Assembly: GCA_040390065.1 (NCBI GenBank)
Contig: JAZJZE010000009.1
Location: 506,930 to 570,929, forward strand
Reading direction: 5' to 3'
DNA: 64,000 bases
Source: a bacterium
GTDB lineage: Archaea > Thermoplasmatota > E2 > JACPAO01 > JAHFTW01
Each line of letters begins with the position of its first letter. The stretch's first letter is position 1. This document shows, one piece after another, positions 2,969-63,108 of this stretch. A program made the translations under genes and the position numbers. The notes beneath the pieces were generated by a model. That model searched no databases. It saw nothing but the letters and a program-made list of their open reading frames with translations, and had not been told where the DNA came from.

Positions 2969-3117
2969 GGGGTCACCTGTTCAATCGGCTTTTCTACGCG
3001 TGTGGGCCTAGCGGTGCTGCGGCTGGTGGTCGGTGCCCCACGCCCAAGGTCGATGCCAACGTGGCCCACAAATGGCCCACGTAGAGCCAAGACATAGAGT
3101 TTGTCCCAGGTTTGAGT

Positions 3118-3390
3118 ATGGGTCGCACGAAGATTCGAGGCAGCACTCCGGATTCCACGGATCGCATCCACGTCGCCGTCGACCGCGACTTGTTGAAGTG
3201 GATTGACGCCAACCTGGCGCCTGGTGGCCCGTTTGGCAGCATGACGCACGCCGTCGAGTTTGCCCTTCGCCACTTGCGCGACGAACAGGAAGCACTTCGT
3301 CAGGCGTGCAAAGACGGGAAAGTTCCCTTCAAGGATACCACAATGTGGCTGCTGTACCAGGAACTCCTGGACGAGTCCAGGCGCCGCTAA
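3118..3390 (+). CDS. Ribbon-helix-helix (CopG-like) protein
   Basis: 'RIHVAVDRDLLKWIDA...FGSMTHAVEFALRHL' fits the RHH strand-helix-helix pattern; divergent from the surface protein gene. Confidence 0.7.
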   Translation: MGRTKIRGSTPDSTDRIHVAVDRDLLKWIDANLAPGGPFGSMTHAVEFALRHLRDEQEALRQACKDGKVPFKDTTMWLLYQELLDESRRR

Positions 3391-4754
3391 GGCTGAAGCC
3401 ACCAATCCCCGCCCTTCTGCAGCTTTGCAAGGACGGGCGCCAATGAGACATCCGTGGCCGCATCCACCGCATAGGAAGCCTGCAAGGTGACGGCTACGCG
3501 AAGCCACTCCGCAGCCTTCTCTGCATGCGGGTGCGCGTCGCGCGCGCTCGCGAGGCTCGCGCAGCAGCGCGCGGCTTCGTAGGCATTCTCGGCGCGAAGG
3601 GGAACCAAGTCGATTCCCAGGCGGATTTCCTGCTGCAACCACAAGTCGGCCTCCGTGTGCATCAGCAACGCTTGCTCGATGCGGTTCAAGCCGGAAAGGC
3701 ATAAGCCGCGAACAAAGGTTGCTTCCGCGTCTGTAGGGTCAAGATCGCGTGCCCGGTCTACTTGGCGCAGGGCCTCCGCGAATCGGCGTTGGTTGACCAA
3801 CTCATAGGCCCATTCCCGGTACTCCCCGCCCTTGGCAGCAGCGACGGGGTCATGACCGGGTTGGCGGCGGTGAATGATGATTCGGCGTTGCGTGAATCGA
3901 ACGGTGGGCCAGGCCAGGACCGCGACCAGGGCGAGTCCGGCCACAGGCCACAACAGCCACGCAACAGGGCTGGCGGAACTGCGGGATGGCACAATCGCGT
4001 GGCCGTCTACAACGGCCTCGCCGTCGCCGGACAAGGCAGCAGTGATGGGAAGGGACGTGCCGCGGCCAGCAAGACGCGCCGCCAGATTTCCTGAGACGAC
4101 TAGGTGGTTTCCCGTCAGGGCGGTGGAGGCGCCGCCTACGTCGAGACTCCCCACCGCCGACTCCAACGCAAGCCCCGTCGTGCCAAGGTTGGCGTCCCCA
4201 TCCGTGAGCAAGGTAGGCGGCACCATGCCGAGAGGCACCATGAGGCGCCCATTGGTCACGTAGAGGTAAACCTCCACGTCGCGTCCGAAGATTTGAGACA
4301 TGTCGGGCACGGCGGCAGGAAGGAGGGGGGATTGTTGAGGGCCCGTTTGGACATCCTGCGTCTGGCCATTGGCGGTCAAGGTTGCATTCCATTTCCACAA
4401 GGACAGCACGAACGAGCCGGCAATTTCCACGACGCCAATGCACCCGGACCACGCCAGCGCGGCGCCGATTGAACGCGTCATCGGGGGACGCGCAGCATTA
4501 ACGTAGGGTACGCGTTGCAGCGTCGACGCGTCGGACGCGCTGGTAGATTGGCAGGTTGCCTTTACGGACGGCGGCGGAGCGCCGTCCACGGGGAAGACGT
4601 TCCACCGGAAGCTGTTTCGCGTTGCCGTCCCTTGCAGCGTCGCATCCGCGTAGTCCTGCGGTTGGGTGGTCGGGTTGACGTCCTTCGGATTTCCGGTGGC
4701 GTGGACGGAGACATCGGCGGAATCTACCTCCATGTGCAGCCGCTCGGCCGCCAT
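3387..4754 (-). CDS. Ectodomain + single TM + TPR-like membrane protein (start uncertain, no signal peptide seen)
   Basis: TM 'VAWLLWPVAGLALVAVLAWP' followed by TPR-like 'FAEALRQVDRARDLDPTDAEATFVRGLCL'; collinear similarity to 46578-48068. Confidence 0.7.
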   Translation of the reverse strand: MAAERLHMEVDSADVSVHATGNPKDVNPTTQPQDYADATLQGTATRNSFRWNVFPVDGAPPPSVKATCQSTSASDASTLQRVPYVNAARPPMTRSIGAALAWSGCIGVVEIAGSFVLSLWKWNATLTANGQTQDVQTGPQQSPLLPAAVPDMSQIFGRDVEVYLYVTNGRLMVPLGMVPPTLLTDGDANLGTTGLALESAVGSLDVGGASTALTGNHLVVSGNLAARLAGRGTSLPITAALSGDGEAVVDGHAIVPSRSSASPVAWLLWPVAGLALVAVLAWPTVRFTQRRIIIHRRQPGHDPVAAAKGGEYREWAYELVNQRRFAEALRQVDRARDLDPTDAEATFVRGLCLSGLNRIEQALLMHTEADLWLQQEIRLGIDLVPLRAENAYEAARCCASLASARDAHPHAEKAAEWLRVAVTLQASYAVDAATDVSLAPVLAKLQKGGDWWLQP

Positions 4755-5073
4755 CGAGAATCCGGGAATCGGTTGGGCATTAAGTGTTCGCCGCCGGGGG
4801 CCTTCGCGCCTGTAGGCGCTCCGGCAAGGCGGTCGGCGCCTGCTGGCGCCTGCGAAGAATCGGTGACGGCACATCACCGGTGAACGCACCCGCCAACGTC
4901 CTCTGGACGCGACGGGCAATCGCTGACTACGGGCCCCCGCGGGATTCACGTCGCCGCGTCTGAGGCAACCGCAGGATGCGCACCCGCTTGCGGGTGGTCG
5001 CCGTGGGATTGCGTCACGGGGCCCCGGCGCGTCGGCGCACCCGCCGCCAAGTCTGGTGGGGCCGGGCCCCAAC

Positions 5074-5199
5074 CCGGTAAACCCCGCCCGGCAAGAGCGT
5101 GAGCGCTTCGCCCGCCACCCCAACCATGCTGGGGCCAGCATGCGCTTTGGGTGGCGTGCTTTGCCTTCACGCCCTTTGCCGCAGCGGGGCTAAAGCCGG
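5074..5199. promoter_or_regulatory. Long imperfect hairpin (~125 nt) directly upstream of the mobile-element operon
   Basis: Nested inverted repeats: catgctgg/ccagcatg (5125-5142), cgccaccc/gggtggcg, gcgtga/tcacgc, ccccgc..cggcaa/ttgccg..gcgggg, ccgg/ccgg; ends 11 nt before ATG 5211. Confidence 0.6.
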
Positions 5200-5210
5200 C
5201 TCGGTGCCCC

Positions 5211-5759
5211 ATGGCCCCACCAGAATTTGCCGACGAGTGCCACCGAACTGCCTGCCCCGTGCCCCAGCCACACGGAGCCCACTGCCCCCGCATCCCGGGC
5301 GCCCGCCTCGCAGGCTGCCTTGAATGCGGCGCCACAATCCTGCTGGCCCACGACTACGCGCCGGCTACGGCGCGCTGCAAGACGTGCCGCGACGCGACGA
5401 CGACTGCCACGATGACGACGGACCGCGCGCCGACGGCGGATTGGCTACGCCGCTTCCGAAGCGAAGCAACGGACGACGAGATGCCGCTCGGCGAAGCCGT
5501 CCACACGCCCACCTCGGGCGACCGGCTCCGCGCGGCGGAAGTGACGATGCGCCTGCGAACCAGCGCCGCCGGCCGAGTCGTGACCTCGACGCCGACACGC
5601 AGCATCGGATGCGACGATGCCGGCCGCCCCGTACGCCCCGCCGCAAAGCGGCGCGAGGCAAGCGATGACCAAGACGACGTCGAGGAACCCCAGTCCGTGG
5701 CGCGCTTCGGCGGCCGACTGCCCGCCCTCGCCGGCTACCGTGCCCAGGCAGGTGCCTAA
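5211..5759 (+). CDS. Cys/His-rich putative Zn-finger protein
   Basis: CHRTAC..H..HC, CLEC and CKTC motifs; stop abuts the next ATG (TAAATG). Confidence 0.55.
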   Translation: MAPPEFADECHRTACPVPQPHGAHCPRIPGARLAGCLECGATILLAHDYAPATARCKTCRDATTTATMTTDRAPTADWLRRFRSEATDDEMPLGEAVHTPTSGDRLRAAEVTMRLRTSAAGRVVTSTPTRSIGCDDAGRPVRPAAKRREASDDQDDVEEPQSVARFGGRLPALAGYRAQAGA

Positions 5760-6245
5760 ATGGGCCCGAACCAGGCCACTGTTCGCCGGGCCAGCATCCT
5801 GGCTTGGGTTGAGGCCAATCCGGGCCAAGGCTTCCGCGCCCTTTCACGAGGAACCTGCATCCCGACCGGGACGCTGGCGCACCATCTTGGCATCCTGAAG
5901 CGACGTGGCCTCGTGGCGGACAGGGCGCTTGGCCCTCGCCGCTTGTTCTACCCCACCGACGCCATCGTGGACGACCCCGCCAAGGCGGCGATGAACCTTC
6001 ACCCCGGCTTGGCCGCCCTTTACGCGTTCGTGCAGGCCAACGGTCCCTGCATGCAGAACGTCGTTCTTGCCGCCTTCGAGGCGCAGGGTTGGCCGCGTTC
6101 CACGACGCAGCAGCGCCTCCGCCGCCTTGTGGCTGTCGGCGGCTTGCAGGCGGTGCGGGGCGTGCGGTCACTACGATACGCGGTCCAGGCACCCGCGGTG
6201 GCCCAGTTGCCTCTTGCCTCCCGCCTGCAGGTGGTGTTGGCATGA
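5760..6245 (+). CDS. Tandem winged-helix transcriptional regulator (COG3398-like)
   Basis: 'ILAWVEANPGQGFRALSRGTCIPTGTLAHHLGILKRRGLV' plus a second wHTH 'PRSTTQQRLRRLV'. Confidence 0.75.
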   Translation: MGPNQATVRRASILAWVEANPGQGFRALSRGTCIPTGTLAHHLGILKRRGLVADRALGPRRLFYPTDAIVDDPAKAAMNLHPGLAALYAFVQANGPCMQNVVLAAFEAQGWPRSTTQQRLRRLVAVGGLQAVRGVRSLRYAVQAPAVAQLPLASRLQVVLA

Positions 6246-6340
6246 CCACCAAGACAATCCAAGTCTGCTCCGTTTGCGGACGCGCCTGTCCCGGCGGCGA
6301 CTGCGCGCATCCGGCGTGTCCTTCGCAGCGGGTGTTCTAA
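6242..6340 (+). CDS. 32-aa Zn-finger microprotein
   Basis: MTTKTIQVCSVCGRACPGGDCAHPACP; ATGA overlap with the upstream gene and TAATG overlap with ardC. Confidence 0.55.
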   Translation: MTTKTIQVCSVCGRACPGGDCAHPACPSQRVF

Positions 6341-7257
6341 TGTCATCCGCGCGCCAGGCCGTGTACGCGAAGGTCACCGACGCCATCATGGGGAAGCTCC
6401 GCGAAGGCGTTGCGCCGTGGCACAAGCCCTGGAGCGATGCGGATCGGCCTCGCAACTTCGCCACCGGTCGAGCCTACTCCGGCATCAACGCATTCGCGCT
6501 CGGCTTGTTCGGGCCGACGCCGTATTGGCTGACCTTCAATCAGGCACGCCTGATGGATTGCCAGGTGCGCCAGGGGGCCAAGGGTGTGCCCATCCTGTTC
6601 TATGGTACGCAGACGCGGCAACGCTTGGTCAAAGGCAACAACGGGGCGGCCGTGGAGGATCATGAGGTTGGCTTCGTGCGGTACTTCCACGTCTTCAACG
6701 CCGTTGACGTGGACGGCATCGACGCCGCCAGACTCGGCCAATCGCCATCGCCCTTCGAGCCCATTGAGGTCGCTCAAGGGTTGCTTTCCGCCGTGCAGCC
6801 GACGCCGGAGATTAGGCATGGCGGCGACGTGGCTGCCTTCAACCCGGCCCGTGACGTGCTTCGGATGCCGCGGCCCGAGGACTTCGCTCGCAGCGTGGAC
6901 TACTACGCCATCCTCTTCCACGAACTGACCCACTGGACGGGCCACCAGTCGCGCCTCGACCGCGAGTCTTTGCGCGACGCGAAGAGCTTCGGGGACGAAT
7001 CGTACAGCCGCGAGGAACTGGTGGCCCAAATGGGCGCCGGCTTCCTATGCGCCTTGACGGGCATCCAAAACGACACCATCGAGCAGTCCGCAAGCTACCT
7101 CGACAATTGGCTCAAGCAACTCCAGAACGACCGCGGCCTACTCATCTCTGCCGCGAGCCAGGCGCAACGCGCCACCGACTACTTGACCCGCAGCTGGACC
7201 CAGCCCGCGGCAATCGGCGTGACCGACCAAGAAACGGAGGCCACAGCGGAATCGTGA
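6340..7257 (+). CDS. ardC: ArdC-family ssDNA-binding antirestriction protein (DUF1738 + zincin-like domain)
   Basis: 'GVAPWHKPW...PRNFATGRAYSGINA...YWLTFNQA...VRQGAKG', 'FHELTHWTGHQSRLDR', 'YSREELVAQMGA', 'SASYLDNWL'. Confidence 0.92.
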   Translation: MSSARQAVYAKVTDAIMGKLREGVAPWHKPWSDADRPRNFATGRAYSGINAFALGLFGPTPYWLTFNQARLMDCQVRQGAKGVPILFYGTQTRQRLVKGNNGAAVEDHEVGFVRYFHVFNAVDVDGIDAARLGQSPSPFEPIEVAQGLLSAVQPTPEIRHGGDVAAFNPARDVLRMPRPEDFARSVDYYAILFHELTHWTGHQSRLDRESLRDAKSFGDESYSREELVAQMGAGFLCALTGIQNDTIEQSASYLDNWLKQLQNDRGLLISAASQAQRATDYLTRSWTQPAAIGVTDQETEATAES

Positions 7258-7329
7258 AGCCTCCCCTTGAATCGTGAGCGCCATTGCGGCGACCTTTCCC
7301 CCTTCCCCAGCGAATGCCAGGTGAAACCC

Positions 7330-8706
7330 ATGAAGAAAATTGAAACTGAAGTGCCAGCCACGAGTGGCGAGAAGCTGCTCGTTCCCGTCAACCAAGTCCG
7401 CGAGTCCCCGGACAATGGCCGCATCAACTACGATGAAGCCGCCCTGAAGGACCTGATGCAATCCATCAAGTCCACGCGCCTGGAAGAAGACGTGGTAGTG
7501 CGACGCGTCGAAGCCGACGTGTACGAGGTCGTGGATGGGCACCGTCGATTCCGTGCTGTGCAGCGCCTCGGCTGGGACGCCGTGCCGGTCCTCGTCAAGC
7601 CCTTGACGGAGGAGGAGGCGCGGTTGTACCGTGTGGCGACGATCTTCCAACGCGCCAACGCAACGCCGTACGAGGAAGCACGCTACTTGGCCGCGGCTTT
7701 GAAGAATCCGGGCATGACGCGGCAACTCTTGTCGCAAACGTGCGGCATCAAGCCCGGCACCCTGCGAAACCGATTGGAACTCCTGGAGTTTCCGGAGCAG
7801 GTCGCCAAACGCGTCGGTGTCGATGGATTCGCGGCGGAGCACGCCCGCATCCTTGCCAGCCTTGCTGCCTACCCCGACGCCTTGGCAGTTGGCTTGAAGG
7901 TGGCGGAGGACAAGGACACTGAGGGTACGATGCGCTCCGCTCCCCGCTTCTTCGAGGACGTCAAGAAGGCGCTCGTCAAGGCCAACGCTGCCAGGGACCC
8001 CACGAGCAACCGCCTCTGGGAAGTGCGAAACGCCTTCCCGACTTTCGAGGGCCAAGCCGGCAAGTTGGCTTGCGTGAAACACAAGACCCAGTTCGGTGAA
8101 GCTGTCCTGGTCCTCGACGTTGCGGCCTTTGATGGACTCGTGGACAAGGCGAAGGCGACGTTGGAGCGCCGCAAGGAAAAGGACGCCAAGCCGAAGGAGG
8201 ATGCCGACGAGGCACGCCGGATTCGGCGCCGGGAGCGGCAACTCGAAGTCGAACACGCCGCCAACGAATGGAAACGGGATGCGCTGCGGGAGGCCGCCTT
8301 TTCGCGCCTCGGCAACATCAAGGAGGTTGAGGCCTCGGACTTGGCCAGCCCCCTTCTGGACGCCCTGGAAGTCGGCATCGACGAGAACGACATCGAGCCC
8401 CTGGCAGAGGCGGCGGGCGTCCCCGTGGAACGCCTGCGAGGCTTCCTTGCGTGGAACAATGAGGGCGAAGCCGCCAGCCAGGACCTCATACAGCACTCGA
8501 CGCCGATTGAGTTGCTGCGACTGGTGCTCGCCTTGAGCGTGGCTCGCAGCCTCGATGGCCAGTCCGGGACTTGGAGCACTCTGTGCGGGCACTGGACCGG
8601 CAAGACCATGGCGGCTTGGGACGACGCCGCCACGGAGGCGGCCCGCGGCATCGTCAAGGCCAAGGGCAAGCAGGGCGAAGCGGAGGAAGCCGAGGCAACC
8701 GCCTAG
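7330..8706 (+). CDS. ParB/RepB/Spo0J-family protein with a long C-terminal region
   Basis: 'LKDLMQSIKS...VVVRR...YEVVDGHRRFRAVQRLGWDAVPV', 'TPYEEARY' and an HTH; AGGTGA SD before ATG 7330. Confidence 0.88.
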   Translation: MKKIETEVPATSGEKLLVPVNQVRESPDNGRINYDEAALKDLMQSIKSTRLEEDVVVRRVEADVYEVVDGHRRFRAVQRLGWDAVPVLVKPLTEEEARLYRVATIFQRANATPYEEARYLAAALKNPGMTRQLLSQTCGIKPGTLRNRLELLEFPEQVAKRVGVDGFAAEHARILASLAAYPDALAVGLKVAEDKDTEGTMRSAPRFFEDVKKALVKANAARDPTSNRLWEVRNAFPTFEGQAGKLACVKHKTQFGEAVLVLDVAAFDGLVDKAKATLERRKEKDAKPKEDADEARRIRRRERQLEVEHAANEWKRDALREAAFSRLGNIKEVEASDLASPLLDALEVGIDENDIEPLAEAAGVPVERLRGFLAWNNEGEAASQDLIQHSTPIELLRLVLALSVARSLDGQSGTWSTLCGHWTGKTMAAWDDAATEAARGIVKAKGKQGEAEEAEATA

Positions 8707-8729
8707 ACGCGACTGGAGCGTGCTGACCC

Positions 8730-8945
8730 TTGACTTGGACTGACCGGCAACGCCTCGAACTCATGGGGCTGTTGGACGATGCCGCCCTGGACCACTTGCG
8801 CGGCGAGTACGCTCCGGCGTACCAGGCCGTCATGGACGCCTGCGACACGTGCCTGCACAGCTCCGACTTCACCCACGACGATGCCGTGGCTGAATTGGAT
8901 GTCGTCCTGGAGTGGCTCCTCAAGTCGCAAGGGGTCCCCGTATGA
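8730..8945 (+). CDS. Small acidic hypothetical protein
   Basis: Coding-like composition; follows ParB and precedes a pyrimidine-rich tract. Confidence 0.5.
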   Translation: MTWTDRQRLELMGLLDDAALDHLRGEYAPAYQAVMDACDTCLHSSDFTHDDAVAELDVVLEWLLKSQGVPV

Positions 8946-8957
8946 TGATCCGGGCAG

Positions 8958-10893: not shown

Positions 10894-12180
10894 TCAGTAG
10901 TCGCCAATCGGGGCTTTCATGAATTCGCGCAGCACGACTGTTGCGTAGGACCCCTTGCCCAGAGCGAAGGCGAAGACCGGATCGCCGTCGACCCATGAGA
11001 CGGTGAGGTCGCGCACGGGTTGCAGGATGCCGCGGCGCCGTCCCTTGCTGGCCATTTCGGGGAGTTCGCGGACGCGGAAGTCTGCCGGGTGGACGCCTTC
11101 GTCGTCGAGGACGGCCTGCTCGACGTCGCCGGGGCGGCCTTGCGCCATCTCCACGGTGAGCCCGACGAGGGGCGCGGTGAGGGTTGCGCGTCCTTTGTCG
11201 AGTTCTCGTTGCACGCGCTCCAGGCTTGCCGCTGTGACGAGGTGGGTGTGGGTGCCGTCTTCGTCCACGCCCATGACGCGGTCGCCGACGTGGGCCCGTG
11301 CAACGCCGAGTCCGGCCTCGACGCGGGCGGAGAGGATGAGGTTGAACAGGTAGGACTGGTGGGCGTGGACGAAGAGTTGCAGCAGGTTCGGCGGCAATGC
11401 GCCGAGGGCGTTGCGCCAGTCGCCGGGTTTGCGAAGCAGCCGTTCGAGGATGGCCCGTTCGCCGTCGAGGTGGCGCGGATAGACGTCCAACGCGGCGCCT
11501 GGGTCGCGGGTCGTCTCGTAGACGGCGCGGGCGGCCAGTGCTTCTTCGCGTTCGCCGGCGACCGGATTACCGCAGTACAGGCGGACGGCTTCCTCGAGGT
11601 CGCCGTCGACGATGGCGCGGCCGACTAGGTGCGTGATGGCGCGCCAGGAGCCGCCGAAGCGCTGTGGCCCGAAGAAATTCGGCACTCCGCCCTCCGCGGC
11701 GATGGCCTTGGCCGCGGCGTCGACGGCGACGGTATCACGCGTCGAGTCGCGCACGCGGATGACGAAGCGGTTGCCCTCGTGGGCCCCGGCAAAGTGGGCC
11801 TTGCGCGTCGCGTACGTCTCCAGGACCTCGACGTCCGAGAGGGTGGAGAGTTTGCCCACGTCCGCGACGGGGGCCTTGAACGTGAACCACTGTTCCGTGA
11901 CGGCGCGCTTGTCCTTCATGCCGGCAAAGGCGACGTGCTCCCGGTAGATGCCAAGGCGCTTTGCGGCCTCGCCTGCGAAGCGGTTGGTTTCCCAGTTCTT
12001 CAGCCGGATGCGCGCGGCGGCATGGGCGCCCTCGGCAAACGGCTTGGGGCCCTCTCCGGTCTCGATGACGACGAAGTCCTCAGGCTCGCCGCGCAGCTTG
12101 CCGCCGATGCCGGCCGTCGCGGTGAGGTACGAGGCGAGGCCGAGCGCGCGCTCCTCGTCGGGTGGAACGGGTCGCGTCAA
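10894..12180 (-). CDS. truD: tRNA pseudouridine(13) synthase
   Basis: 'GIGGKLRGEPEDFVVIE', 'FAGMKDKRAVTEQW', 'GVPNFFGPQRFG', 'HAHQSYLFN', 'FALGKGSYATVVLRE'; start estimated (TTG). Confidence 0.95.
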   Translation of the reverse strand: MTRPVPPDEERALGLASYLTATAGIGGKLRGEPEDFVVIETGEGPKPFAEGAHAAARIRLKNWETNRFAGEAAKRLGIYREHVAFAGMKDKRAVTEQWFTFKAPVADVGKLSTLSDVEVLETYATRKAHFAGAHEGNRFVIRVRDSTRDTVAVDAAAKAIAAEGGVPNFFGPQRFGGSWRAITHLVGRAIVDGDLEEAVRLYCGNPVAGEREEALAARAVYETTRDPGAALDVYPRHLDGERAILERLLRKPGDWRNALGALPPNLLQLFVHAHQSYLFNLILSARVEAGLGVARAHVGDRVMGVDEDGTHTHLVTAASLERVQRELDKGRATLTAPLVGLTVEMAQGRPGDVEQAVLDDEGVHPADFRVRELPEMASKGRRRGILQPVRDLTVSWVDGDPVFAFALGKGSYATVVLREFMKAPIGDY

Positions 12181-12316
12181 CGAGGCGGCGAGGAGGCATC
12201 CCGTGAAAAGGTCAAGCGCGGGGGACTTGCGGGTGCGTCCAGCGGACCGGACGGCGGCATCGGTGGGCTTTCCGTCATGGCAAACGGCACCCGTCGCGCG
12301 CCTCAAGGCCAGGGGA

Positions 12317-12690
12317 CGGCCACGTCATCCTCCGACGGCGGCGCGGGCAACGAGGTGGCCGCGTGGCTGGGTGTGGGAGGCCATGGAGAACAGGAATCAA
12401 GTGGAGAGAAACGGAATGCGTTCTCGTTTTCCCGTGGTCTCCGGTTCTCCCAGGCCGTCTTTGCCTGAAAGGCCGCGAAGTCGCCGAAGAGTGGAAAGGT
12501 CGCTTTCCGCGTTTTTCGGTGGCTTCCAGCTCTTTCAGGCCCCCGGCGGCCCCAGCCATCGCTTCGCTCCGCTTGCCATGCCCTCGCACGCCCGCGCTGC
12601 GCCGCGGGCAGCTCGCCCCGACCGGGGGCTGCGTCGCCTCCCTGCCATTCCTTCAAGGCGTCGGCGCCGTCGGAGGAACGTGGGAATGGC
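12317..12690. repeat. Composite structured dispersed element, copy 1
   Basis: Module A hairpin 12317-12361, central hairpins 12379-12456 and 12463-12540, module C 12541-12690; A and C recur in the same order at 61542-61893. Confidence 0.85.
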
Positions 12691-12747
12691 GCGTCGGTCT
12701 TGACCCGCAGGTTGGCCGGTCTTCCGCGGCTTCCTGGATGTCCAGGC

Positions 12748-12911
12748 CTAGAGTCTGACGCAAAAGTAGCCTGTCCGCCGGGCAATCCGCAGCGTGCCGG
12801 CTGCTAGGAAGGGGCCCGCAGGCGTACTGGAGGTACGGCCAGGGCCCCTGACGACGCAGACGGTCGGCTCCGGGCAGCCCGGCGTCAGGGGACTTTTGCG
12901 TCAGACGTTAG
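12748..12911. mobile_element. MITE-like element (~160 bp)
   Basis: Perfect 15-bp terminal IR gtctgacgcaaaagt (12753-12767) / acttttgcgtcagac (12892-12906), extendable to 20 bp with 2 mismatches; internal aggggccc..cgtac/gtacg..gggcccct hairpin; no transposase ORF. Confidence 0.75.
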
Positions 12912-13195
12912 TTGCGCTTCTTCAACTCGGCTGCAAACGCGTGCTCGAGCGCGTCGAATTCGCCGATCAGGGACTTGATGGTGCGCTTGAGGACGACGTC
13001 CGGCTTGACCTTGCCTTTCGTGCGCACGAAGATCTTCGGCGTGGAGAGGCTCGGGTGTTCGATGATGTATTCGGCGAAGTCGACGTCCTTGTCCGCGAGC
13101 AGGGCCTGCTTGATGGGGTTGAGGAGCGTCTCGTTCTCGCCCACGACCTCGATCTCCAATTCGTTGGCGGTGCTGGAGATGACGGTGAGCTTCAT
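12908..13195 (-). CDS. rpoL: RNA polymerase subunit L (Rpo11)
   Basis: 'ELEIEVVGENETLLNPIKQALLADKDVDFAEYIIEHP'. Confidence 0.95.
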   Translation of the reverse strand: MKLTVISSTANELEIEVVGENETLLNPIKQALLADKDVDFAEYIIEHPSLSTPKIFVRTKGKVKPDVVLKRTIKSLIGEFDALEHAFAAELKKRN

Positions 13196-35172: not shown

Positions 35173-35481
35173 CGGGTTCGCGAGGCTCACCCGTCATGTC
35201 GTTCGCACACGGATGCCCACGCTGGGGCCTTCCCGGCCCCAGACCCCTGGGCGGAGACGGCGGCCGGTCGGCATCGCGCCACAACATCGCTGCGCCGCAT
35301 GCTGGCCGGCAAGCCGGCCAGCATACGTGACTGGCGAACCGTCGCTGCGCTCCGGTTCACCAGCGCTCGCTGAGGATGCTCGGCTGCTACCCTCCGGGTC
35401 CGCGTTGACAAGCCGGCCGCCGAGGCCAGCCGCGCAGGGAGGTCATCACGCGTTCTGTTCCATCTGTTTCATCTGTTGACC
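35170..35481. repeat. Cluster of REP-like palindromes between convergent genes
   Basis: tgacgggt/acccgtca; ggggcc/ggcccc+agacccc; perfect 12-bp stem atgctggccggc/gccggccagcat (35299-35324); ctggcgaaccg/cggttcaccag; 9-periodic arm tctgttcca-tctgtttca-tctgttgacc (35454-35481). Confidence 0.7.
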
Positions 35482-38724: not shown

Positions 38725-39801
38725 CTACGCCGGCTGGACGCCGTTCGTGGCCGGCGTAAAGGTCGTGCCGAAGAGCAGTGGGGAGGGGTAAGGATGCGCC
38801 GGCGCCGACCAGTCGTATTGGAAGGACCAGGGTCCAAATTGTCGAGAGAACTCCAGCTCGATGATGCCGGGCGGAGCGACGGTCTCCACGGTTCCATCCG
38901 GGCGGACATATCTTGCATGGCCGTCCGTGGCGTTTTCCAAGCCGGTTCCTTGCGGGCCCACCGAGGAAAACGGCAGGAAGCCAAGGACGAGGGTTTTCCC
39001 GTCAATTCCCAGCGAGCGGTCGAGTTGCACCATGGCGCTGGCCTGCACATCGTAGCCGGCCGATGCGGCGCCGACTTGAGCACCCTGCTGGGCATCGCTT
39101 CGTTTCGCAAGAAAGACTCCCTCCGCGTCGCCGTAAGAAACCGACAAGGCAGTGTTGTTCCAGTGGCCCTGCAGGGTTGGGGGGGCCGCAAGCTCCGTGG
39201 ACAGCAGCATGAAGATGTGCCCAAATGCGTCTGGGCCGCACATGCGTTGCGCCGCTTTCCATCCCTCGCGGGTTACGTCAACAACGAGGGATATCCTGCT
39301 TCCGTCGGTCCCCTGGAGGATGCCCATGTCAGGCCCGGGTCCTGTGGCGTTGGCTTGCTTGGCGCCTGCCCCGACCCAGACGGCGGTCATCGGTGGCGCT
39401 CCAGTCGTGAGCTCGGACATCATGCCCCAACAGTCGCGCCATTCCGCTCCTTGCAACCTGGGCCCGCCAAATCCCACCGTAAAAATCTGGTTGGTCGTGG
39501 ACTTCGGGGGCATCGTCCAATTGACCCACAACCGCAGGTCGCCATCCATATGGTCCCCTCCGGCGGGAAACGAAATGTCAATCCAAACCAATCCCGGAAC
39601 GGTTCGGCGCAGGGTTCCGCTGGTGGGAATGAGTTGCGGCGTATCGTGTCCCTGATTGGTCCCCGCGACCACTTGGGTTGCCGGCGCCCTGGAGGAGTCG
39701 GATTCTGGCGGGAGGCTCGCTTCATTGGTAGGCCGGTGGGCGCTGCAGCCTGCCAGCACGAAACCAAGGAAGAGGAGGGGGAGGAGCAGCCGGCCTAGCA
39801 T
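38725..39801 (-). CDS. Orphan lipoprotein
   Basis: MLGRLLLPLLFLGFVLAGC lipobox; start overlaps the upstream gene's stop. Confidence 0.7.
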   Translation of the reverse strand: MLGRLLLPLLFLGFVLAGCSAHRPTNEASLPPESDSSRAPATQVVAGTNQGHDTPQLIPTSGTLRRTVPGLVWIDISFPAGGDHMDGDLRLWVNWTMPPKSTTNQIFTVGFGGPRLQGAEWRDCWGMMSELTTGAPPMTAVWVGAGAKQANATGPGPDMGILQGTDGSRISLVVDVTREGWKAAQRMCGPDAFGHIFMLLSTELAAPPTLQGHWNNTALSVSYGDAEGVFLAKRSDAQQGAQVGAASAGYDVQASAMVQLDRSLGIDGKTLVLGFLPFSSVGPQGTGLENATDGHARYVRPDGTVETVAPPGIIELEFSRQFGPWSFQYDWSAPAHPYPSPLLFGTTFTPATNGVQPA

Positions 39802-40247
39802 GTTGCCGTGGCCGTCTGTTCGGCGCCGTCGGAGGGATCAACCACAAGGTGGAAGTGGCCGATGATTGAGGCATAGGCCGTAATGGACTCCCCCGTGTTC
39901 ATGAGGTGGCTTGCGGCGCCGTCCTGGTGCGTGCCAGGGTCGATTGCGCCCGGTACGTTGACGCCCGTTGTGTGGGTGTAGTATGAGACGCCGTATTCGT
40001 AGTCATAATCGGCGAGGGTCGACGAGCCACTGACGCTTGTGAACCACTCGGCGCTGCAACCGCTTCCGTAGGGGTGCAGGATGACCCAGGCAACGGCAGT
40101 GGTGGTGATGCACTGGGCAGGAGGAGTGCCGTAGAGAGTCTGGCAGATAGTGGCTGCGTCCGGCGTCCCGGACACCGGCAGCGCCGTCAATACGAGCATT
40201 CCCATTGCAATCAAGCCGAACATCCTGGGCATAGAGTTGTTGGTCAT
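39795..40247 (-). CDS. Small secreted Cys-containing protein
   Basis: Signal peptide 'MFGLIAMGMLVLTALPVSG'; 4 Cys including the C-terminal residue. Confidence 0.65.
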   Translation of the reverse strand: MTNNSMPRMFGLIAMGMLVLTALPVSGTPDAATICQTLYGTPPAQCITTTAVAWVILHPYGSGCSAEWFTSVSGSSTLADYDYEYGVSYYTHTTGVNVPGAIDPGTHQDGAASHLMNTGESITAYASIIGHFHLVVDPSDGAEQTATATC

Positions 40248-40291
40248 TGCGTTTGTCCTGACCCCACCGTGAGGCCAAACGCTGCCAAGGC

Positions 40292-40303
40292 GGGGGGGGG
40301 GGG
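40292..40303. repeat. G12 homopolymer in a divergent promoter region
   Basis: c-gggggggggggg-tatctat; the longest homopolymer noticed in the window. Confidence 0.8.
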
Positions 40304-40401
40304 TATCTATCTGCCGGCGAGATGACTGGAACGATTCCAACAGCAGGCCGCCTCCCGACCGATTCGAGAACGCTTATCCTCCGCCGCCCAGGTGGTCGCC
40401 T

Positions 40402-41989: not shown

Positions 41990-43474
41990 ATGCCGCCCGC
42001 CGCACCCACGACGACGGCGGAGGAGCCGCCCGCGGAAGGCGGGCTGCGGCGCGACCTGAACCTCTTCGGCGCCGTCTCGATGATCGTCGGCATCGTGATC
42101 GGCTCGGGCATCTTCATCGGTGTCAACCGCGTGGCAGCCGGCGCCGGGTCGCCTTGGCTCATCATCCTCGTCTGGGTCATCGGTGGCCTTCTCACCTTGA
42201 TGGGCGCCTTGACGTACGCGGAACTGGGCGTCATGTTCCCCCGCGCCGGCGGTCCGTACGTGTTCCTTCGCGAAGGACTCGGCCCGCTCCCCGCGTTCCT
42301 TGCCGGCTGGACGACCTTCACGGTCAACCTCGCAGGCTCCGCCGCGGCTCTTGCCCTGGCCTTCGCGACGCAGTTCAACCAGTTGCGCCCCGGCGGCTGG
42401 ATGCCGCTGTTTCCCGACCACCCGGAATGGTCGGCCAAGATCATCGCAGCCTGCGTCATCCTGCTCATCGCGATCCTGAACTACTTCGGCCTGCGCCTCG
42501 GCGGCAACGTGCAGAAGTCGCTGACCGTGCTGAAGGGCACCCTCATGGTCTTCCTGGCAGCGGCGGCCCTCTTCTGGTTGGGCAACTCCGCGTCCCCCGT
42601 GCCGGGCCTGTTCGACGCGCCAGCATACCAGACGCAGGCCGCGGCCGCCGCCCCCGTCATCCATGAGGGTTTCGACCTCGCAGGATTCTTCGGACTGGCC
42701 CTCGTCGCAGCGCTGTTTGCGTACGACGGCTGGACCAACGTCACGACCGTCGGCTCCGAGATCAAGAACCCGTCGCGCAACCTGCCGCGCGCAATGCTCC
42801 TCGGCATCGGCGCGGTCATCGTGCTCTACATCCTCCTGAGTTTCGGCTACATGCATGTCCTCGGCCTGCAGGGCTTCGCGGACGGCAAGTTCGCCGGCTT
42901 CGGCGACGCGAGCAAGGTCGCAGGCAACACCGCCTCCGTGCTGTTCGGGGACGCCGGATTGCGCATCGTCGCCGCCACCATCCTCGTCTCGGTGCTTGGC
43001 AGCCTGAACGGCATCACGATTTCCGGGCCGCGTTACTACTACGCCATGGCGCGCGACGGGCTCTTCCCGCGCTTCTTCGGCGGCGTCAACCGGCACCATG
43101 TCCCCGGCCACTCCATCTGGGGGCAAGCCATCCTGAGCGTGCTGTTCCTGCTGTTTCTGGACTTCGACCAGCTCACCAACAACGTCGTCTTCGTCTCGCT
43201 CTTCTTCTACTCCCTGTGCGCCGTGGCTCTCCTGGTCCTGCGCCGGCGCCGCCCCGACTTGCCACGACCGTACAAGGTGCCGCTCTATCCCTGGATCCCC
43301 CTCACGTACATCGCGGCGAGCATGCTCTTTGCCGGCTACCTCACTTACCAAGCGGTGCTCGACGCAAGCGGCATGGCGTACCGCTTCCTCGGCCTCGCCA
43401 TCATCGCGGCTGGCGTCCCGATGTACTACGCCTTCCGCTGGTACTACCGCCGCGGGACGCCGCAGCCCAACTAG
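41990..43474 (+). CDS. APC-family amino acid permease
   Basis: 'IVGIVIGSGIF', 'YAELGVMFPRAGG', 'FAYDGW', 'EIKNPSRNLPRA', 'RPYKVPLYP'. Confidence 0.93.
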   Translation: MPPAAPTTTAEEPPAEGGLRRDLNLFGAVSMIVGIVIGSGIFIGVNRVAAGAGSPWLIILVWVIGGLLTLMGALTYAELGVMFPRAGGPYVFLREGLGPLPAFLAGWTTFTVNLAGSAAALALAFATQFNQLRPGGWMPLFPDHPEWSAKIIAACVILLIAILNYFGLRLGGNVQKSLTVLKGTLMVFLAAAALFWLGNSASPVPGLFDAPAYQTQAAAAAPVIHEGFDLAGFFGLALVAALFAYDGWTNVTTVGSEIKNPSRNLPRAMLLGIGAVIVLYILLSFGYMHVLGLQGFADGKFAGFGDASKVAGNTASVLFGDAGLRIVAATILVSVLGSLNGITISGPRYYYAMARDGLFPRFFGGVNRHHVPGHSIWGQAILSVLFLLFLDFDQLTNNVVFVSLFFYSLCAVALLVLRRRRPDLPRPYKVPLYPWIPLTYIAASMLFAGYLTYQAVLDASGMAYRFLGLAIIAAGVPMYYAFRWYYRRGTPQPN

Positions 43475-44271
43475 GGCACGAGTCCCCGCAGGGCCGCCGA
43501 AACTTGGCCGTACTCCCACGGCGACACCTGGGTTGCGGTCCGAGCCCCGACTTGCAGCTGCTCCTGCACTTGCGTGATGGCTGCGGACGGCAACCCGAGG
43601 TCGCCGGCAAGGGGAGCAAGGCTGTGCCGCAGCGTCCGCTTGCGCGCCGACCAGGCCGCATCGAGGACGACATCGAGCAACGCGAAATCCACGGTCGGGT
43701 CTGGCGCCTTCGGCACGACGGCGACGACATGCGATGCCACGTCGGGCGGCGGATGGAAGTCGTGCCGGCGAAGAGGGAACAGCGCCTTCGACTTGGCCCG
43801 CAACGCCATCTGCACGGTGAGTTTGCCATAGGCCTCGTCGCCTGGCTTCGCGGTCAAGCGCTCGGCGAGTTCGCGGGGCATGACCAGCACGGCGCGGCCG
43901 AAACCGTGCTCCAGCAGGCGCGCAAGAAGACCCGGAATGATGCGGTAGGGCGGATTTGCCACCACGGCGTCGATGCGCGCCGGCAGCCGGACCTTGAGGG
44001 CGTCACCGGTCGTCACGGTCAGACCCGGAAGGGCGAGTGCCTCGAGGGACTGCGCCAGGGCCGGCGCCTTCTCCACGGCGACGACCGACCCGCCTGGAGC
44101 GACGCCCGTGCACAGCAGGCGCGTGATGGCGCCGGCGCCGGCCCCCACGTCGAGGACGTGCTCACCGGGCCGCAGCGCAGCGGCCTCGACGATGCGCGCC
44201 ACCGCCGACCCGGCCGGGTCGAGGAAGTGGGCGCCGCGACTGCGCCGGTCGGGGTCGGTGCGCTTCGCCAC
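43471..44271 (-). CDS. rsmA: rRNA adenine dimethyltransferase (RsmA/KsgA-like)
   Basis: 'GAHFL', 'VLDVGAGAGAIT', 'GDAL', 'VVANPPYRI', 'YGKLTV', 'FHPPPDVAS'. Confidence 0.8.
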   Translation of the reverse strand: MAKRTDPDRRSRGAHFLDPAGSAVARIVEAAALRPGEHVLDVGAGAGAITRLLCTGVAPGGSVVAVEKAPALAQSLEALALPGLTVTTGDALKVRLPARIDAVVANPPYRIIPGLLARLLEHGFGRAVLVMPRELAERLTAKPGDEAYGKLTVQMALRAKSKALFPLRRHDFHPPPDVASHVVAVVPKAPDPTVDFALLDVVLDAAWSARKRTLRHSLAPLAGDLGLPSAAITQVQEQLQVGARTATQVSPWEYGQVSAALRGLVP

Positions 44272-44323
44272 GCCGCGGGCAGGCAACCCAAGACCTAAAC
44301 CCCCTCCCCGTAGTGGCGCAAGC

Positions 44324-46033
44324 GTGGCCCCGGCCGAGGAGCATGACCCGCTGCAACTGGCGATGCTGCTGGCCGACGCCGCGACGGTGGCGTGGCGTCG
44401 CATCGCGGACAACAGCGACCGGCACGACAAGGTCGGCCTCGGCGCCGGGGGCAACCTCACGTCGAAGGCCGACTTGGAACTCGAGACCGCGATTCTTGCC
44501 AAGGCGGCTGAACTGGGCCTGACCGTGCTGTCGGAGGAGGTGGGCCTGGTCGACAAAGGCTCGCGCCTCATCGCCGTCGTCGACCCTCTCGACGGCTCCC
44601 GCAACGCCGGCCGCGGCATCCCGTTCCATTGCACGAGCATCGCCATCGGCGACAAGGGCGGCGCCCTCTCGACGCTGCATGCCGGCGTGGTTCGCAACCT
44701 CGTGACGGGGGACACGTACACGGCCGTGCGCGGCAACGGGGCATGGTGCAACGGTAAGCCCGTCAAGCCGTCGCCGTTCCACGCTGATGAAGTCATGGTT
44801 GGCATCATCGCCGACTACTCGGACACCGAGATTGCCGAAGCGCACGCCAACCGCAACCACCACATCCGCGACCTCGGCTCTGCGGCGCTGGAGATGTGCC
44901 TCGTGGGGACCGGCGCGATGGATGCCTTCATCGTGCGCAAGCCGTGGCTGCGCGTCGTCGACATCGCCGCCGCGACCTTGTTCGTGCGCGAAGCGGGCGG
45001 TTCCGTCCATGATCCACTCACCGGTCGCGACCTGGAGGTGCCCTTCGACATGTCGGCCCGCTGCGCCGTGCGCGCCGCCCACAGCGCCGAGGCACGCCAG
45101 GCCGTCTCGGGAATGCGCTTGCCCGTGCGCACACCGTCCGGACGCATGACGGGGCCACTCTTGCGCGGCGAGGCCAGCCTCGACGAGCCCGGGGCAATGC
45201 CGCTTGTGTGGGCCCTGGTCGGCAAGGCCGGGATTCCCCACATCCGCAAGGAGGCAACCTGGGTGCGCGACCACCTGCGGCAACGCGGCCAGACCGTCCT
45301 CGTCGAGCACGACCTCGCGGCAGCCTTCGGCGACAAGCCGCACACCTTCGAGGAGCTCGACCGCCTCGCGGACATCTTTCTCACCGTGGGGGGCGACGGC
45401 ACCATCCTTCTCGCGCTGTCGCACACGGACAAGCCCATCTTCGGCGTCAATGCAGGCGCCATCGGTTTCCTGTCCGAACTCGAGCCGCCGCAAGCCGCGC
45501 AAGGCATCGACCAGGTCATCCGCGGCGACTACCGCATCGAGGAACGCGACAAGCTGTCCGCCTGGCTCGACGAGACACGGCTGCCCGACGCCACGAACGA
45601 GGTGACGCTGCAGACGAGCCGCATCGCCAAACTCATCCGCTTCCAGATCACGGTGTCGGGGGAAATGCTCGACACGCTGCGCGGCGACGGCATCATCGTG
45701 TCCACGGCGACCGGCTCGACGGGCTACGCCATGTCCGTCGGTGGGCCCCTCGTGCATCCACTCGTGCACGGCACCGTACTCGCCCCGATTGCGCCCTTTC
45801 GCCTCTCCGCTCGGCCCTGGGTCGTCCCCGCCGACGCCGTCGTCGAGGTCACCCTGCTCGACCGTGACTCCGCCCAAGGCGAGCAGCAGGCGCGCGTCGT
45901 CGTCGACGGCCAGCACGGCTTCGACATCGCGCCCGGCGCCAAGGTCCGCATCGCGCCCTCGCCGCGCAAGGCTCGCTTCATCCGGCTCGGCTCCGGCTTC
46001 TACGAACGTGTGCGTACCAAGTTGACGAGGTAA
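44324..46033 (+). CDS. Bifunctional NADP phosphatase (IMPase fold) / NAD kinase
   Basis: IMPase motifs 'LSEE', 'VDPLDGS', 'GSAAL', 'DIAAA'; NAD kinase motifs 'GGDGTIL', 'NE', 'GDGIIVSTATGSTGYAMSVGGP'. Confidence 0.92.
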   Translation: MAPAEEHDPLQLAMLLADAATVAWRRIADNSDRHDKVGLGAGGNLTSKADLELETAILAKAAELGLTVLSEEVGLVDKGSRLIAVVDPLDGSRNAGRGIPFHCTSIAIGDKGGALSTLHAGVVRNLVTGDTYTAVRGNGAWCNGKPVKPSPFHADEVMVGIIADYSDTEIAEAHANRNHHIRDLGSAALEMCLVGTGAMDAFIVRKPWLRVVDIAAATLFVREAGGSVHDPLTGRDLEVPFDMSARCAVRAAHSAEARQAVSGMRLPVRTPSGRMTGPLLRGEASLDEPGAMPLVWALVGKAGIPHIRKEATWVRDHLRQRGQTVLVEHDLAAAFGDKPHTFEELDRLADIFLTVGGDGTILLALSHTDKPIFGVNAGAIGFLSELEPPQAAQGIDQVIRGDYRIEERDKLSAWLDETRLPDATNEVTLQTSRIAKLIRFQITVSGEMLDTLRGDGIIVSTATGSTGYAMSVGGPLVHPLVHGTVLAPIAPFRLSARPWVVPADAVVEVTLLDRDSAQGEQQARVVVDGQHGFDIAPGAKVRIAPSPRKARFIRLGSGFYERVRTKLTR

Positions 46034-55874: not shown

Positions 55875-55944
55875 AACCACTGAAACCACTGAACGCACTG
55901 AAACGCCGGACGGTAGTTCAGTGGGTTCAGTGAGCTCAGTGGTT
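55875..55944. repeat. 9-nt-periodic hairpin
   Basis: aaccactgaaaccactgaacgcactgaa / ttcagtgggttcagtgagctcagtggtt (24/28 paired); a degenerate second copy at ~55988-56046. Confidence 0.8.
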
Positions 55945-56089
55945 AGGGCGGCGGTGCCGCGTGGTTGACGCCCCCCGAATCGCCCAGAACACTGAGCGCG
56001 TTGAACGTGTCGTGGGTAGCCCAGTGAAGTCCGTGCGTTCGGTGGCTCGGCCGGGGTCCAGACGGAGCACCGACAGTGGAAAGGGAGGG

Positions 56090-58704: not shown

Positions 58705-58794
58705 GGTCAACAGATGCTCGAGATGACGACGGCTTTTCCGTCACGACTTCGCCTCCGTCGTCGGCATCGGTTTCATCGGTTCAATCTGTTGACC
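58705..58794. repeat. 9-nt-periodic hairpin
   Basis: Perfect outer IR ggtcaacagat/atctgttgacc; right arm catcggttt-catcggttc-aatctgttg. Confidence 0.78.
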
Positions 58795-58858
58795 AGGAGT
58801 CGTCTCGGGGGCGACGCGACATCACCTCCAAATAGGCCCGCGAAACTCGCCGAGAACG

Positions 58859-59807: not shown

Positions 59808-59822
59808 TCTTGCGTCCAACGG

Positions 59823-59986
59823 TGTCCAGGTTTGGCCCTTAGCGCAAGCTCGGCCAGCATTGGAATCCACAGAATCCTGCGTCGAAGCGCTGTCAAGGTT
59901 TGGCCCCCGCGCCGAGCTCGCCCAGCATTGGAATCCACCGAATCCACAGAAAGTAGCGGGCGGTTTCGGTGGATTCAGTGGATTCC
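59823..59986. repeat. Degenerate 55-bp tandem duplication (period 68) ending in a 9-nt-periodic hairpin
   Basis: tgtc.aggtttggccc...ccagcattggaatccac.gaatcc at 59823 and 59891; IR ggaatccaccgaatccacagaaa / tttcggtggattcagtggattcc (21/23 paired). Confidence 0.8.
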
Positions 59987-61335: not shown

Positions 61336-61512
61336 ATGACGAACGCCCTCATGCGGTATTGCGGCACCTGCTCCGAGTACACGCTGAAGGAGGCCTGCCC
61401 GCGCTGCGGCGGCAAGACGGCGCAGAAGACGCCGGCCAAGTTCAGTCCCGAGGACCATTACGGCGAGTACCGACGCAAGCTCAAGAAATTGGATGCGTCC
61501 GAGAAGGCGTAG
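61336..61512 (+). CDS. nop10: H/ACA RNP protein Nop10
   Basis: 'C..C.EYTLKEACPRCGG.T...PAKFSPEDHYGEYRR'. Confidence 0.95.
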   Translation: MTNALMRYCGTCSEYTLKEACPRCGGKTAQKTPAKFSPEDHYGEYRRKLKKLDASEKA

Positions 61513-61541
61513 GGCATCGGTCCATCGAAACCAACCAACTT

Positions 61542-61893
61542 GCGGCCACGTCAACCTCCGACGGCGGCGACGCGCACGAGGTGGCCGCTTGCTTGAGTTT
61601 GGGCGGCCTGGAAAAACAGTGAACCCCATGAAACGGCAGGCGACAGGACATCGGTTTCCCTGGGTTCGGGTGGTGCACTATTTTCCGCGGCCTCCCACAC
61701 TCAGCGACGCCCCGCAAGCAAGATGAATCCCAGCCCCCCCGGCGGCCCCCGCGCGCTCGCTACGCATCGCGCACTGGCCTCGCCCTCGCACGCCCGCGCT
61801 GCGCTGCGGGCTGCTCGCCCCGACCGGGGGCCCGCTTCGCCTTTCCTCCATTCCCTCAAGGCGTCGGCGCCGTCGGAGGACGACGGGAATGGC
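61542..61893. repeat. Composite structured dispersed element, copy 2
   Basis: Module A 61542-61588, central hairpin ~61610-61686, module C 61737-61893; homologous to 12317-12690. Confidence 0.85.
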
Positions 61894-61914
61894 TCGGTGG
61901 CTTGGACAAGCAGG

Positions 61915-61943
61915 AATCAGTCCAATCCGTGCAATCCGTGGTT
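61915..61943. repeat. 9-nt-periodic half-site
   Basis: aatcagtcc-aatccgtgc-aatccgtgg-tt, 14 nt from the desaturase stop. Confidence 0.65.
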
Positions 61944-62908: not shown

Positions 62909-63108
62909 GGGCATCCCTCCTGAGAGTCATCCGGAGGGCTGCTAACCGGGCGGACGCTGCTTCCAGATTGAAACCTATGTTCGCTGTGGAAGTGGTTAAG
63001 GCCGGAGGTTAGGGGAACGGCTGCTGGTATCCTGCGCGACACCAAGGAGGTCTCCCGGCCGAGAAGAAACGAATGTGGAACGAGGGGAAGAGGAAGCGTT
63101 GGAGGTTC

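Follow-up and report, generated by a model that had tools for sequence, protein, structure and literature searches.

A non-coding sequence of about 380 bases occurs twice, in the same orientation, in a 64-kb stretch of the genome of an uncultured Thermoplasmatota archaeon (the whole stretch of 64,000 nucleotides is called the window here). The two copies lie 49.2 kb apart, at 12317–12711 (395 nt) and 61543–61914 (372 nt), and both are intergenic, among housekeeping genes. The question is what kind of element this is. A preliminary description of the same DNA saw conserved end modules (A on the left, C on the right) around a different middle, and it suggested either a structured RNA or a non-autonomous element with exchangeable cargo.

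Two copies of a non-coding element

The features of the two copies and of the genes beside them are as follows.

10894–12306, minus strand: TruD gene, on one side of copy 1
12317–12362, plus strand: module A of copy 1 (left end); 43 of 48 columns identical with 61543–61589; nhmmer score 73.2 bits; contains the left inverted-repeat arm at about 12317–12343
12328–12340, plus strand: 13-nt core of the left arm of copy 1, exact reverse complement of 12665–12677
12364–12460, plus strand: hairpin P2 of copy 1; base homologous with that of P2 in copy 2, tip different
12461–12542, plus strand: hairpin P3 of copy 1; near-perfect, 34 pairs, no counterpart in copy 2
12541–12711, plus strand: module C of copy 1 (right end); 136 of 173 columns identical with 61745–61914; 142.8 bits with covariance model R1
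12590–12609 and 12616–12627, plus strand: small conserved hairpins in module C of copy 1
about 12662–12692, plus strand: right inverted-repeat arm of copy 1, within module C
12665–12677, plus strand: 13-nt core of the right arm of copy 1
12908–13195, minus strand: rpoL, on the other side of copy 1; stop codon at 12908
ending at 61513, plus strand: aIF2-alpha with nop10 (Nop10 at 61336–61512), left of copy 2
61543–61589, plus strand: module A of copy 2; nhmmer score 80.4 bits; left core at 61555–61566
61588–61721, plus strand: hairpin P2 of copy 2; tip longer than in copy 1
61745–61914, plus strand: module C of copy 2; 144.7 bits with covariance model R1; right core at 61868–61879
61792–61811, plus strand: small hairpin in module C of copy 2
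61958–62914, minus strand: desaturase gene, right of copy 2; stop codon at 61958

The repeat was recovered as three repeat families: D3 (12317–12393 and 61543–61619, 79%), D5 (12572–12629 and 61774–61831, 91%), and D1 (12624–12711 and 61827–61914, 77%). Together with global alignments, these families confirmed that modules A and C occur at both places in the same order and orientation. The homology itself was thus as described before, but its right limit reaches slightly further, to about 12711 and about 61914. In the global alignments, 43 of 48 columns were identical in the module A hairpin and 64 of 78 in its extended form. For module C, the values were 105 of 124 in the core (85%) and 136 of 173 in the entire module (79%). 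In the middle of the element, 73 of 153 columns were identical (48%), and the 100-nt flanks gave 55 of 113 and 53 of 115. The identity of the middle equals that of the unrelated flanks and is thus at background. Over the entire element, 277 of 409 columns were identical (68%). The GC content was 68% in copy 1 and 69% in copy 2, compared with about 66% in the window.

We found no sign that the element encodes a protein. A coding reading was considered for two open reading frames (ORFs) across copy 1, one of 160 aa on the minus strand and one of 131 aa on the plus strand, and it was rejected because neither gave homologue matches. A 96-aa ORF over module C of copy 2 had one match among 1.84 billion representatives (E = 2.3e-4, 27% identity, in a 571-aa protein), and this weak match is taken as compositional. 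In addition, an indel inside module C shifts the reading frame between the two copies. In a GC-rich genome, open frames like these give rise to spurious gene predictions. The results support the earlier view of a non-coding, strongly structured two-copy element with conserved ends.

The searches for relatives were negative. The whole window had no match in Rfam 15 at the gathering thresholds, and searches with either copy at E values up to 10 returned only chance-level microRNA-like matches of at most 22 bits, the best with 21.6 bits against a threshold of 90. Thus, the earlier statement that no known family could be assigned holds for Rfam at both levels. No tRNA genes were found in the window. 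Furthermore, no further copies were detected in the 64 kb by nhmmer with module A, module C, and both middles, or by the covariance model of the module C core (R1) with filters off; the next-best match of this model after the two copies scored 18.9 bits and lay inside a primase gene. A scan of a genome collection for a 20-nt pattern taken from the module C loop matched at least 117 loci. When both copies were compared by blastn with 117 of the matched loci, the similarity was confined to 22–54 nt around the pattern. The 20-nt motif is composed of common GC-rich codon words, and all of these matches are due to chance, in GC-rich bacteria. In the distant mode, the plasmid collection gave one 45-nt chance match, inside a Paracoccus calcium-binding protein gene, and the phage collection gave no match. 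In the literature, we found no paper pairing MITE terms with Thermoplasmata and none pairing Thermoplasmatota with structured noncoding RNA; the core motif, searched as text, appeared only in unrelated primer lists.

Genes for mobility were searched in the same window. Pfam scans covered 45 of the 50 predicted ORFs and 34 of 140 further ORFs overlapping unannotated gaps, and seven ORFs were compared with NCBIfam; no transposase, TnpA, TnpB, or IS110-type domain was found among the ORFs scanned. No element sharing the same ends was seen within the window. By eye, no target-site duplication was found at 12317/12692, 12317/12711, 61543/61895, or 61543/61914.

Inverted ends and internal hairpins

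It had been claimed that the loop of module A is the exact reverse complement of part of module C, and this is correct: the 13-mer at 12328–12340 is the exact reverse complement of 12665–12677. In copy 2, the perfect inverted match is 12 nt long (61555–61566 with 61868–61879), and with mismatches allowed it extends to 25 nt at 88%. The complementarity is not random, because, among perfect inverted repeats whose arms are separated by 100 nt or more, the longest one observed was equalled in 0 of 300 dinucleotide shuffles for copy 1 and in 1 of 300 for copy 2. The 12-mer core with up to one mismatch occurred six times in the window, where 1.92 occurrences were expected (sd 1.42), and 2 of 100 shuffles reached six.

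The two ends had been proposed to act either as kissing loops or as hidden terminal inverted repeats. The partition function pairs the end motifs as a single end-to-end helix, with mean pair probabilities of 0.89 (plus strand) and 0.92 (minus strand) in copy 1 and of 1.00 on each strand in copy 2. In contrast, the local stem of hairpin A had a probability of 0.00 when each copy was folded in full, whichever strand was taken. Furthermore, all four minimum-energy folds (two copies, two strands) are closed by the helix of the two end motifs. The end motifs are therefore not predicted to be kissing loops at equilibrium, and in the model "hidden terminal inverted repeat" describes them better; a loop–loop contact of the ends would require kinetic trapping of the local hairpins. 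In the consensus fold, the first conserved bases on the left pair with the last well-conserved bases on the right (columns 6–14 with 371–384). On the left, 11 nt separate the boundary from the subterminal perfect core, and on the right side about 19 nt of weaker homology follow the paired end. Next to the core, the 3' strands of the two copies differ: read by eye, CCACGU pairs with ACGUGG in copy 1, while the pairing in copy 2 is between CGUC and GACG and has a different register.

The end-to-end stem was also compared with the archaeal bulge-helix-bulge stem of RNA processing or of circular RNAs. By eye, the 5' strand of the end helix has a 2-nt bulge or a 2x2 loop and the 3' strand a bulge of 4–6 nt, with a helix of 3–4 bp between them. 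The layout is alike, but the bulge sizes are wrong, and a bulge-helix-bulge (two 3-nt bulges on opposite strands around a 4-bp helix) was not found in the stem of either copy.

Between the ends, the copies differ in the number and size of their hairpins. The preliminary description had called the middle different, and this is right for the hairpin tips and for P3; the base of the first hairpin, P2, is homologous in both copies. This homology follows from two observations: the 5' arm of P2 in copy 1 (12361–12393) is 82% complementary (27/33) to the 3' arm in copy 2 (61678–61710), and the 3' arms of both copies have TTTTCC...GG.CTCC in common (by eye). In addition, a count by eye showed that the 5' arm of copy 1 matches the complement of the 3' arm of copy 2 better than the two arms of copy 2 match each other. 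From their sequences, the four arms look like the independent decay of one ancestral palindrome. There is also at least one candidate compensatory change in P2, with CTGGG/CCCAG in copy 1 and TTGAG/CTCAG in copy 2. P2 and P3 are unrelated to each other. With nhmmer, P3 and the middle of copy 1 had no second match in the 64-kb window, and each copy's middle matched itself alone. The middle thus does not hold the exchangeable cargo that had been suggested: it contains no ORF with homologues, the base of P2 is common to both copies, and P3 is present in copy 1 only. It reflects gain and loss of hairpin modules.

The folding energies of the entire copies varied. Copy 1 is more stable than its shuffles on the plus strand (−216.6 kcal/mol, z = −4.0) and on the minus strand (−205.4 kcal/mol, z = −4.3), whereas copy 2 is marginally so (−179.2 kcal/mol, z = −2.0, and −195.2 kcal/mol, z = −1.8, respectively). 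For P2 of copy 1, the fold was −41.0 kcal/mol on the plus strand and −33.9 on the minus strand, with six against one G-U pairs; for P3, it was −50.9 and −40.0 kcal/mol, with four against one. P2 of copy 2 was neutral in this respect (−54.5 and −56.1 kcal/mol). Module C folded better on the minus strand in both copies (−88.3 vs. −77.6 and −85.9 vs. −79.7). A strand call from the G-U asymmetry and the fold energies was tried and abandoned, because the hairpins of copy 1 favour the plus strand and module C favours the minus strand. In the consensus fold of the two copies, 13 of 91 pairs were altered on both sides; the alignment is at background identity in the middle, and two sequences give no statistical power for covariation.

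Adjoining copy 1, there is an unrelated near-perfect hairpin of 170 nt (12745–12914) with 62 pairs, which overlaps the stop codon of rpoL and is single-copy in the window. It folds at −110.7 kcal/mol on the plus strand and −102.8 on the minus strand, with four against zero G-U pairs. Like P2 and P3 of copy 1, it thus folds better, and with more G-U pairs, on the plus strand.

Origin of the element

We propose, with a probability of about 0.5, that the element is a composite BOX/MITE-like repeat of this Thermoplasmatota genome, interspersed and non-autonomous. This proposal is based on several results. The copies are dispersed, 49.2 kb apart, and have unrelated flanks, and their ends are conserved while the interior is not. 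The inverted ends are non-random and close the element in all four folds and in the ensemble, and the pairing begins at the first conserved base on the left. The internal hairpins fold by themselves and differ in number and size, as described for BOX elements, and the arms of P2 resemble the independent decay of a single palindrome. In addition, the length, inverted ends, intergenic position, and stable stem-loop agree with the definition of MITEs, and no Rfam family matched. Long near-perfect hairpins characterise selfish palindromic repeats more than they do functional RNAs, and near-perfect hairpins of the P3 type are found here, with the unrelated 62-pair hairpin next door.

Under this proposal, a left module of about 46–77 nt and a right module of about 125–170 nt would carry an imperfect terminal inverted repeat, with a perfect core of 12–13 nt within an imperfect match of about 27–32 nt. 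These inverted end motifs would be the sites at which the element was once moved by a transposase or recombinase whose gene lies in another part of the genome. Propagation would have been limited to copies with intact ends, so the ends would stay alike and the interior would drift. Independent hairpin modules between the ends could have been gained, lost, or resized, such as P2 in both copies and P3 in copy 1 alone. After insertion between genes, read-through transcription would produce a bundle of hairpins closed by the end stem, and this bundle may incidentally stabilise or terminate the adjoining transcripts.

The element can be compared with two known kinds of repeat. In the description of BOX elements from Streptococcus pneumoniae and S. 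suis in PMC3049150, boxA and boxC form a structure and the copy number of boxB varies, and the BOX-type repeat of S. suis has large end modules of 115 and 133 nt. According to this description, the element resembles BOX in being composite, with conserved 5' and 3' modules that jointly form a predicted structure, and in having internal modules that make few contacts with the ends when folded and are not the same in every copy. Its end modules A and C are also comparable in size to those of the S. suis repeat, and, like BOX, it is intergenic and non-coding in origin (PMC3049150). However, P2 and P3 are unrelated hairpins and not tandem copies of one boxB unit as described there (PMC3049150), the host is an archaeon with 66% GC, and two copies are known here. 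No sequence relationship is expected.

MITEs are defined in section 2.1 of PMC10969869 as AT-rich, multicopy elements, typically of less than 500 bp, in AT-rich intergenic DNA, with inverted ends of about 4–30 bp, flanking direct repeats, no transposase gene, and a related insertion sequence sharing the inverted repeats; their transcript is a stable stem-loop. By this definition, the element is like a MITE in its length (395 and 372 nt), in its intergenic position without a transposase, in its inverted ends (cores of 13 and 12 nt, within the 4–30 bp range), and in its predicted transcript, which forms a stem-loop of very high stability with the inverted ends as its closing stem (PMC10969869). 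However, neither copy is flanked by direct repeats, the element is GC-rich (68–69%) and not AT-rich (PMC10969869), the perfect core of the inverted repeat lies inside the left boundary, and no parent insertion sequence is known. The archaeal MITEs listed in PMC10969869 are those of Sulfolobus, Halobacterium, Haloquadratum, Desulfurococcus, and a few others only. The same source notes that repeat families tend to bunch together (PMC10969869).

Several results speak against a composite repeat of this kind. No target-site duplication was present at the boundaries tried, but this is weak evidence, since such flanking repeats are described as fading with age (PMC10969869). The element is GC-rich, its perfect core is subterminal, and weaker homology continues past the paired right end. 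Furthermore, the scanned ORFs of the window contained no transposase, TnpA, or TnpB domain, and the two known copies both come from these 64 kb. Module C is long, with an 85% core, and looks more like a functional RNA domain than like an end bound by a transposase, and at least one apparent compensatory change is present in P2.

These last points lead to the view that the copies are paralogous genes for a structured non-coding RNA of about 350–400 nt, for example a ribonucleoprotein scaffold, in which the ends form the closing helix, module C is conserved, and the peripheral hairpins vary; we regard this as the main alternative, though a tentative one. Large structured non-coding RNAs with a terminal helix do share this plan of a 5'–3' helix that closes the molecule, together with a conserved domain and peripheral hairpins that vary, and the uneven conservation of the element (C core 85%, A 90%, middle at background) agrees with this picture. 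In addition, the closing helix was kept through a register change beside the core, both folds of copy 1 beat their shuffles (z = −4.0 and −4.3), G-U pairs of the copy 1 hairpins are concentrated on the plus strand (six vs. one in P2, four vs. one in P3), and both copies adjoin genes of RNA modification or translation (TruD; aIF2-alpha with Nop10). However, copy 2 is only marginally better than its shuffles (z = −2.0 and −1.8), and the strand signals conflict, with module C better on the minus strand and P2 of copy 2 neutral. By eye, no TATA-like box was seen at an equivalent place outside both copies, and there is no T-run terminator at a common position in both copies on either strand. Unlike the known large RNAs, the element has neither an identified promoter or terminator nor an Rfam match, and no statistical covariation can be obtained from two sequences. 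It is unusual for functional RNAs to contain near-perfect hairpins with at least 34 pairs, such as P3. The more specific idea that the copies are paralogues of an undescribed large Thermoplasmatota RNA, with its 3' domain clamped by a 5'–3' closing helix or by a loop–loop contact of 12–13 bp, seems rather unlikely. If the element is an RNA gene, it would add a large structured RNA class to a phylum with almost none known. A role in cis is less probable still: the element would be a 3' UTR, terminator, processing, or stability element that was duplicated to two loci and is read on the minus strand downstream of rpoL and the desaturase gene. On this strand, both copies do lie downstream of the end of a gene (stop codons at 12908 and 61958), copy 2 sits between convergent genes, and PMC10969869 discusses a possible function of MITE-type repeats in termination or regulation. 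Copy 1 also lies upstream of an apparent truD promoter. The TruD family match begins at residue 51 of the ORF at 10894–12306, and a TTG at about 12180 is preceded, some 25 nt ahead, by CCTTTTCA, which resembles the TATA-like boxes upstream of other window genes; judging from these sequences, copy 1 probably has the end of rpoL on one side and the promoter of truD itself on the other. However, the orientation argument rests on one informative locus because the other copy is between convergent genes, no conserved T-run was seen by eye at a common position on either strand, about 380 nt far exceeds the needs of a terminator, and the inverted end motif is left unexplained. A role in cis is also compatible with a composite BOX/MITE-like repeat.

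Least probable among these accounts, and in our opinion quite improbable, is a remnant or derivative of a transposon with a guide RNA. This would be a PATE of the IS200/IS605 type, with an omega-RNA-like right end, or an element of the IS110/IS1111 type that carries a bridge or seek RNA; in this view, the RNA scaffold would be module C and the left end module A. PATEs of the IS200/IS605 type are characterised by subterminal hairpins that are alike at the two ends and lie on the same strand, and by a conserved target of 4–5 nt 5' of the left end; they are known from archaea, and IS200/IS605 elements make no target-site duplication. The element is similar in being non-autonomous and archaeal, with hairpins near both ends, no target duplication, and a right module that is long, conserved, and structured beside a short left module. 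However, the stems of the end hairpins differ (GGCCAC/GTGGCC and CCATTCC/GGAATGG), and the motif that they have in common is inverted, not repeated in one orientation along the same strand. The left ends are also preceded by different bases (GGGGA and ACTTG), so that a common target is possible only within the conserved first bases. Furthermore, there was no TnpA, TnpB, or IS110-type domain among the scanned ORFs of the window and no match to an Rfam family of the omega-RNA type.

Returning to the composite repeat that we favour, the element belongs to no described family, in a phylum that is little studied, and in kind it is most probably a repeat of a familiar type. As a mobile composite repeat, if it is one, it would be among the first BOX/MITE-like elements described for uncultured Thermoplasmatota, and its end motif would be a handle for finding the enzyme that moved it.

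Neighbouring features in the window

Both copies adjoin genes of pseudouridine formation, TruD in one case and Nop10 of the H/ACA complex in the other; these are two loci, and this may be coincidence. With these neighbours in mind, an H/ACA or C/D guide RNA was considered and rejected, because inspection of both strands by eye showed neither an ACA box behind a hairpin nor convincing C/D boxes. Further genes of the window include PCNA, both primase subunits, GINS, L44e, aIF5A, and TFS. Proteins related to the PCNA with 80–84% identity carry the label Thermoplasmatota or Thermoplasmata archaeon, and other relatives reach 85–91%. PCNA, primase, and GINS suggested a replication origin, which was rejected as well: there is no AT-rich unwinding region (the middle has 56–64% GC), and no orc1/cdc6 lies nearby. 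In addition, the two copies are not direct repeats bounding a 49-kb island, because the interval contains core housekeeping genes and the copies are just 68% identical overall.

A third exact copy of the 16-nt right-end core, in the orientation of module C, was found at 39820–39835, with flanks unlike the element. Allowing up to two mismatches, the window contains five occurrences of this 16-mer, where 0.40 were expected and none of 100 shuffles reached five, and the motif is the only 14-mer family found three times in the window. The site lies at the 3' end of a weak ORF (39795–40340, minus strand) and 20–35 nt upstream of the ATG of a lipoprotein-like gene (38725–39801, minus strand). It may have arisen by chance from preferred codons (Ser-Asp-Gly-Ala), or it may be an isolated site for binding or targeting.

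Other intergenic regions contain 9-nt tandem repeats, some of them as inverted arrays that form hairpins (55875–56006, 59811–59986, 35454–35477, 58767–58823, and 61923–61942). For example, AACCACTGA is repeated about three times between the two primase genes, facing about three units of GTTCAGTGG. Between the L44e region and aIF2-alpha, there are units of the GAATCCAC type and a 68-nt tandem repeat. Units of TCTGTTCCA at 35454 are related to those at 58767, and two CAATCCGTG units were seen by eye directly to the right of copy 2. The intergenic regions here seem unusually long and repeat-rich.

Two further regions of the window were noted. At 43973–46033, there is a fused protein of the inositol-monophosphatase family and NAD kinase, the start region of which is overlapped by an opposite-strand ORF (43474–44814) resembling rRNA adenine dimethylase, and gene calls there are uncertain. 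The stretch from about 3100 to 8950 has a slightly lower GC content and is possibly part of an integrated mobile element; it encodes an ArdC-like antirestriction/zincin protein (6067–7257), a ParB-like protein (7267–8706), and an HTH protein of the HVO_0163 type (5760–6242).
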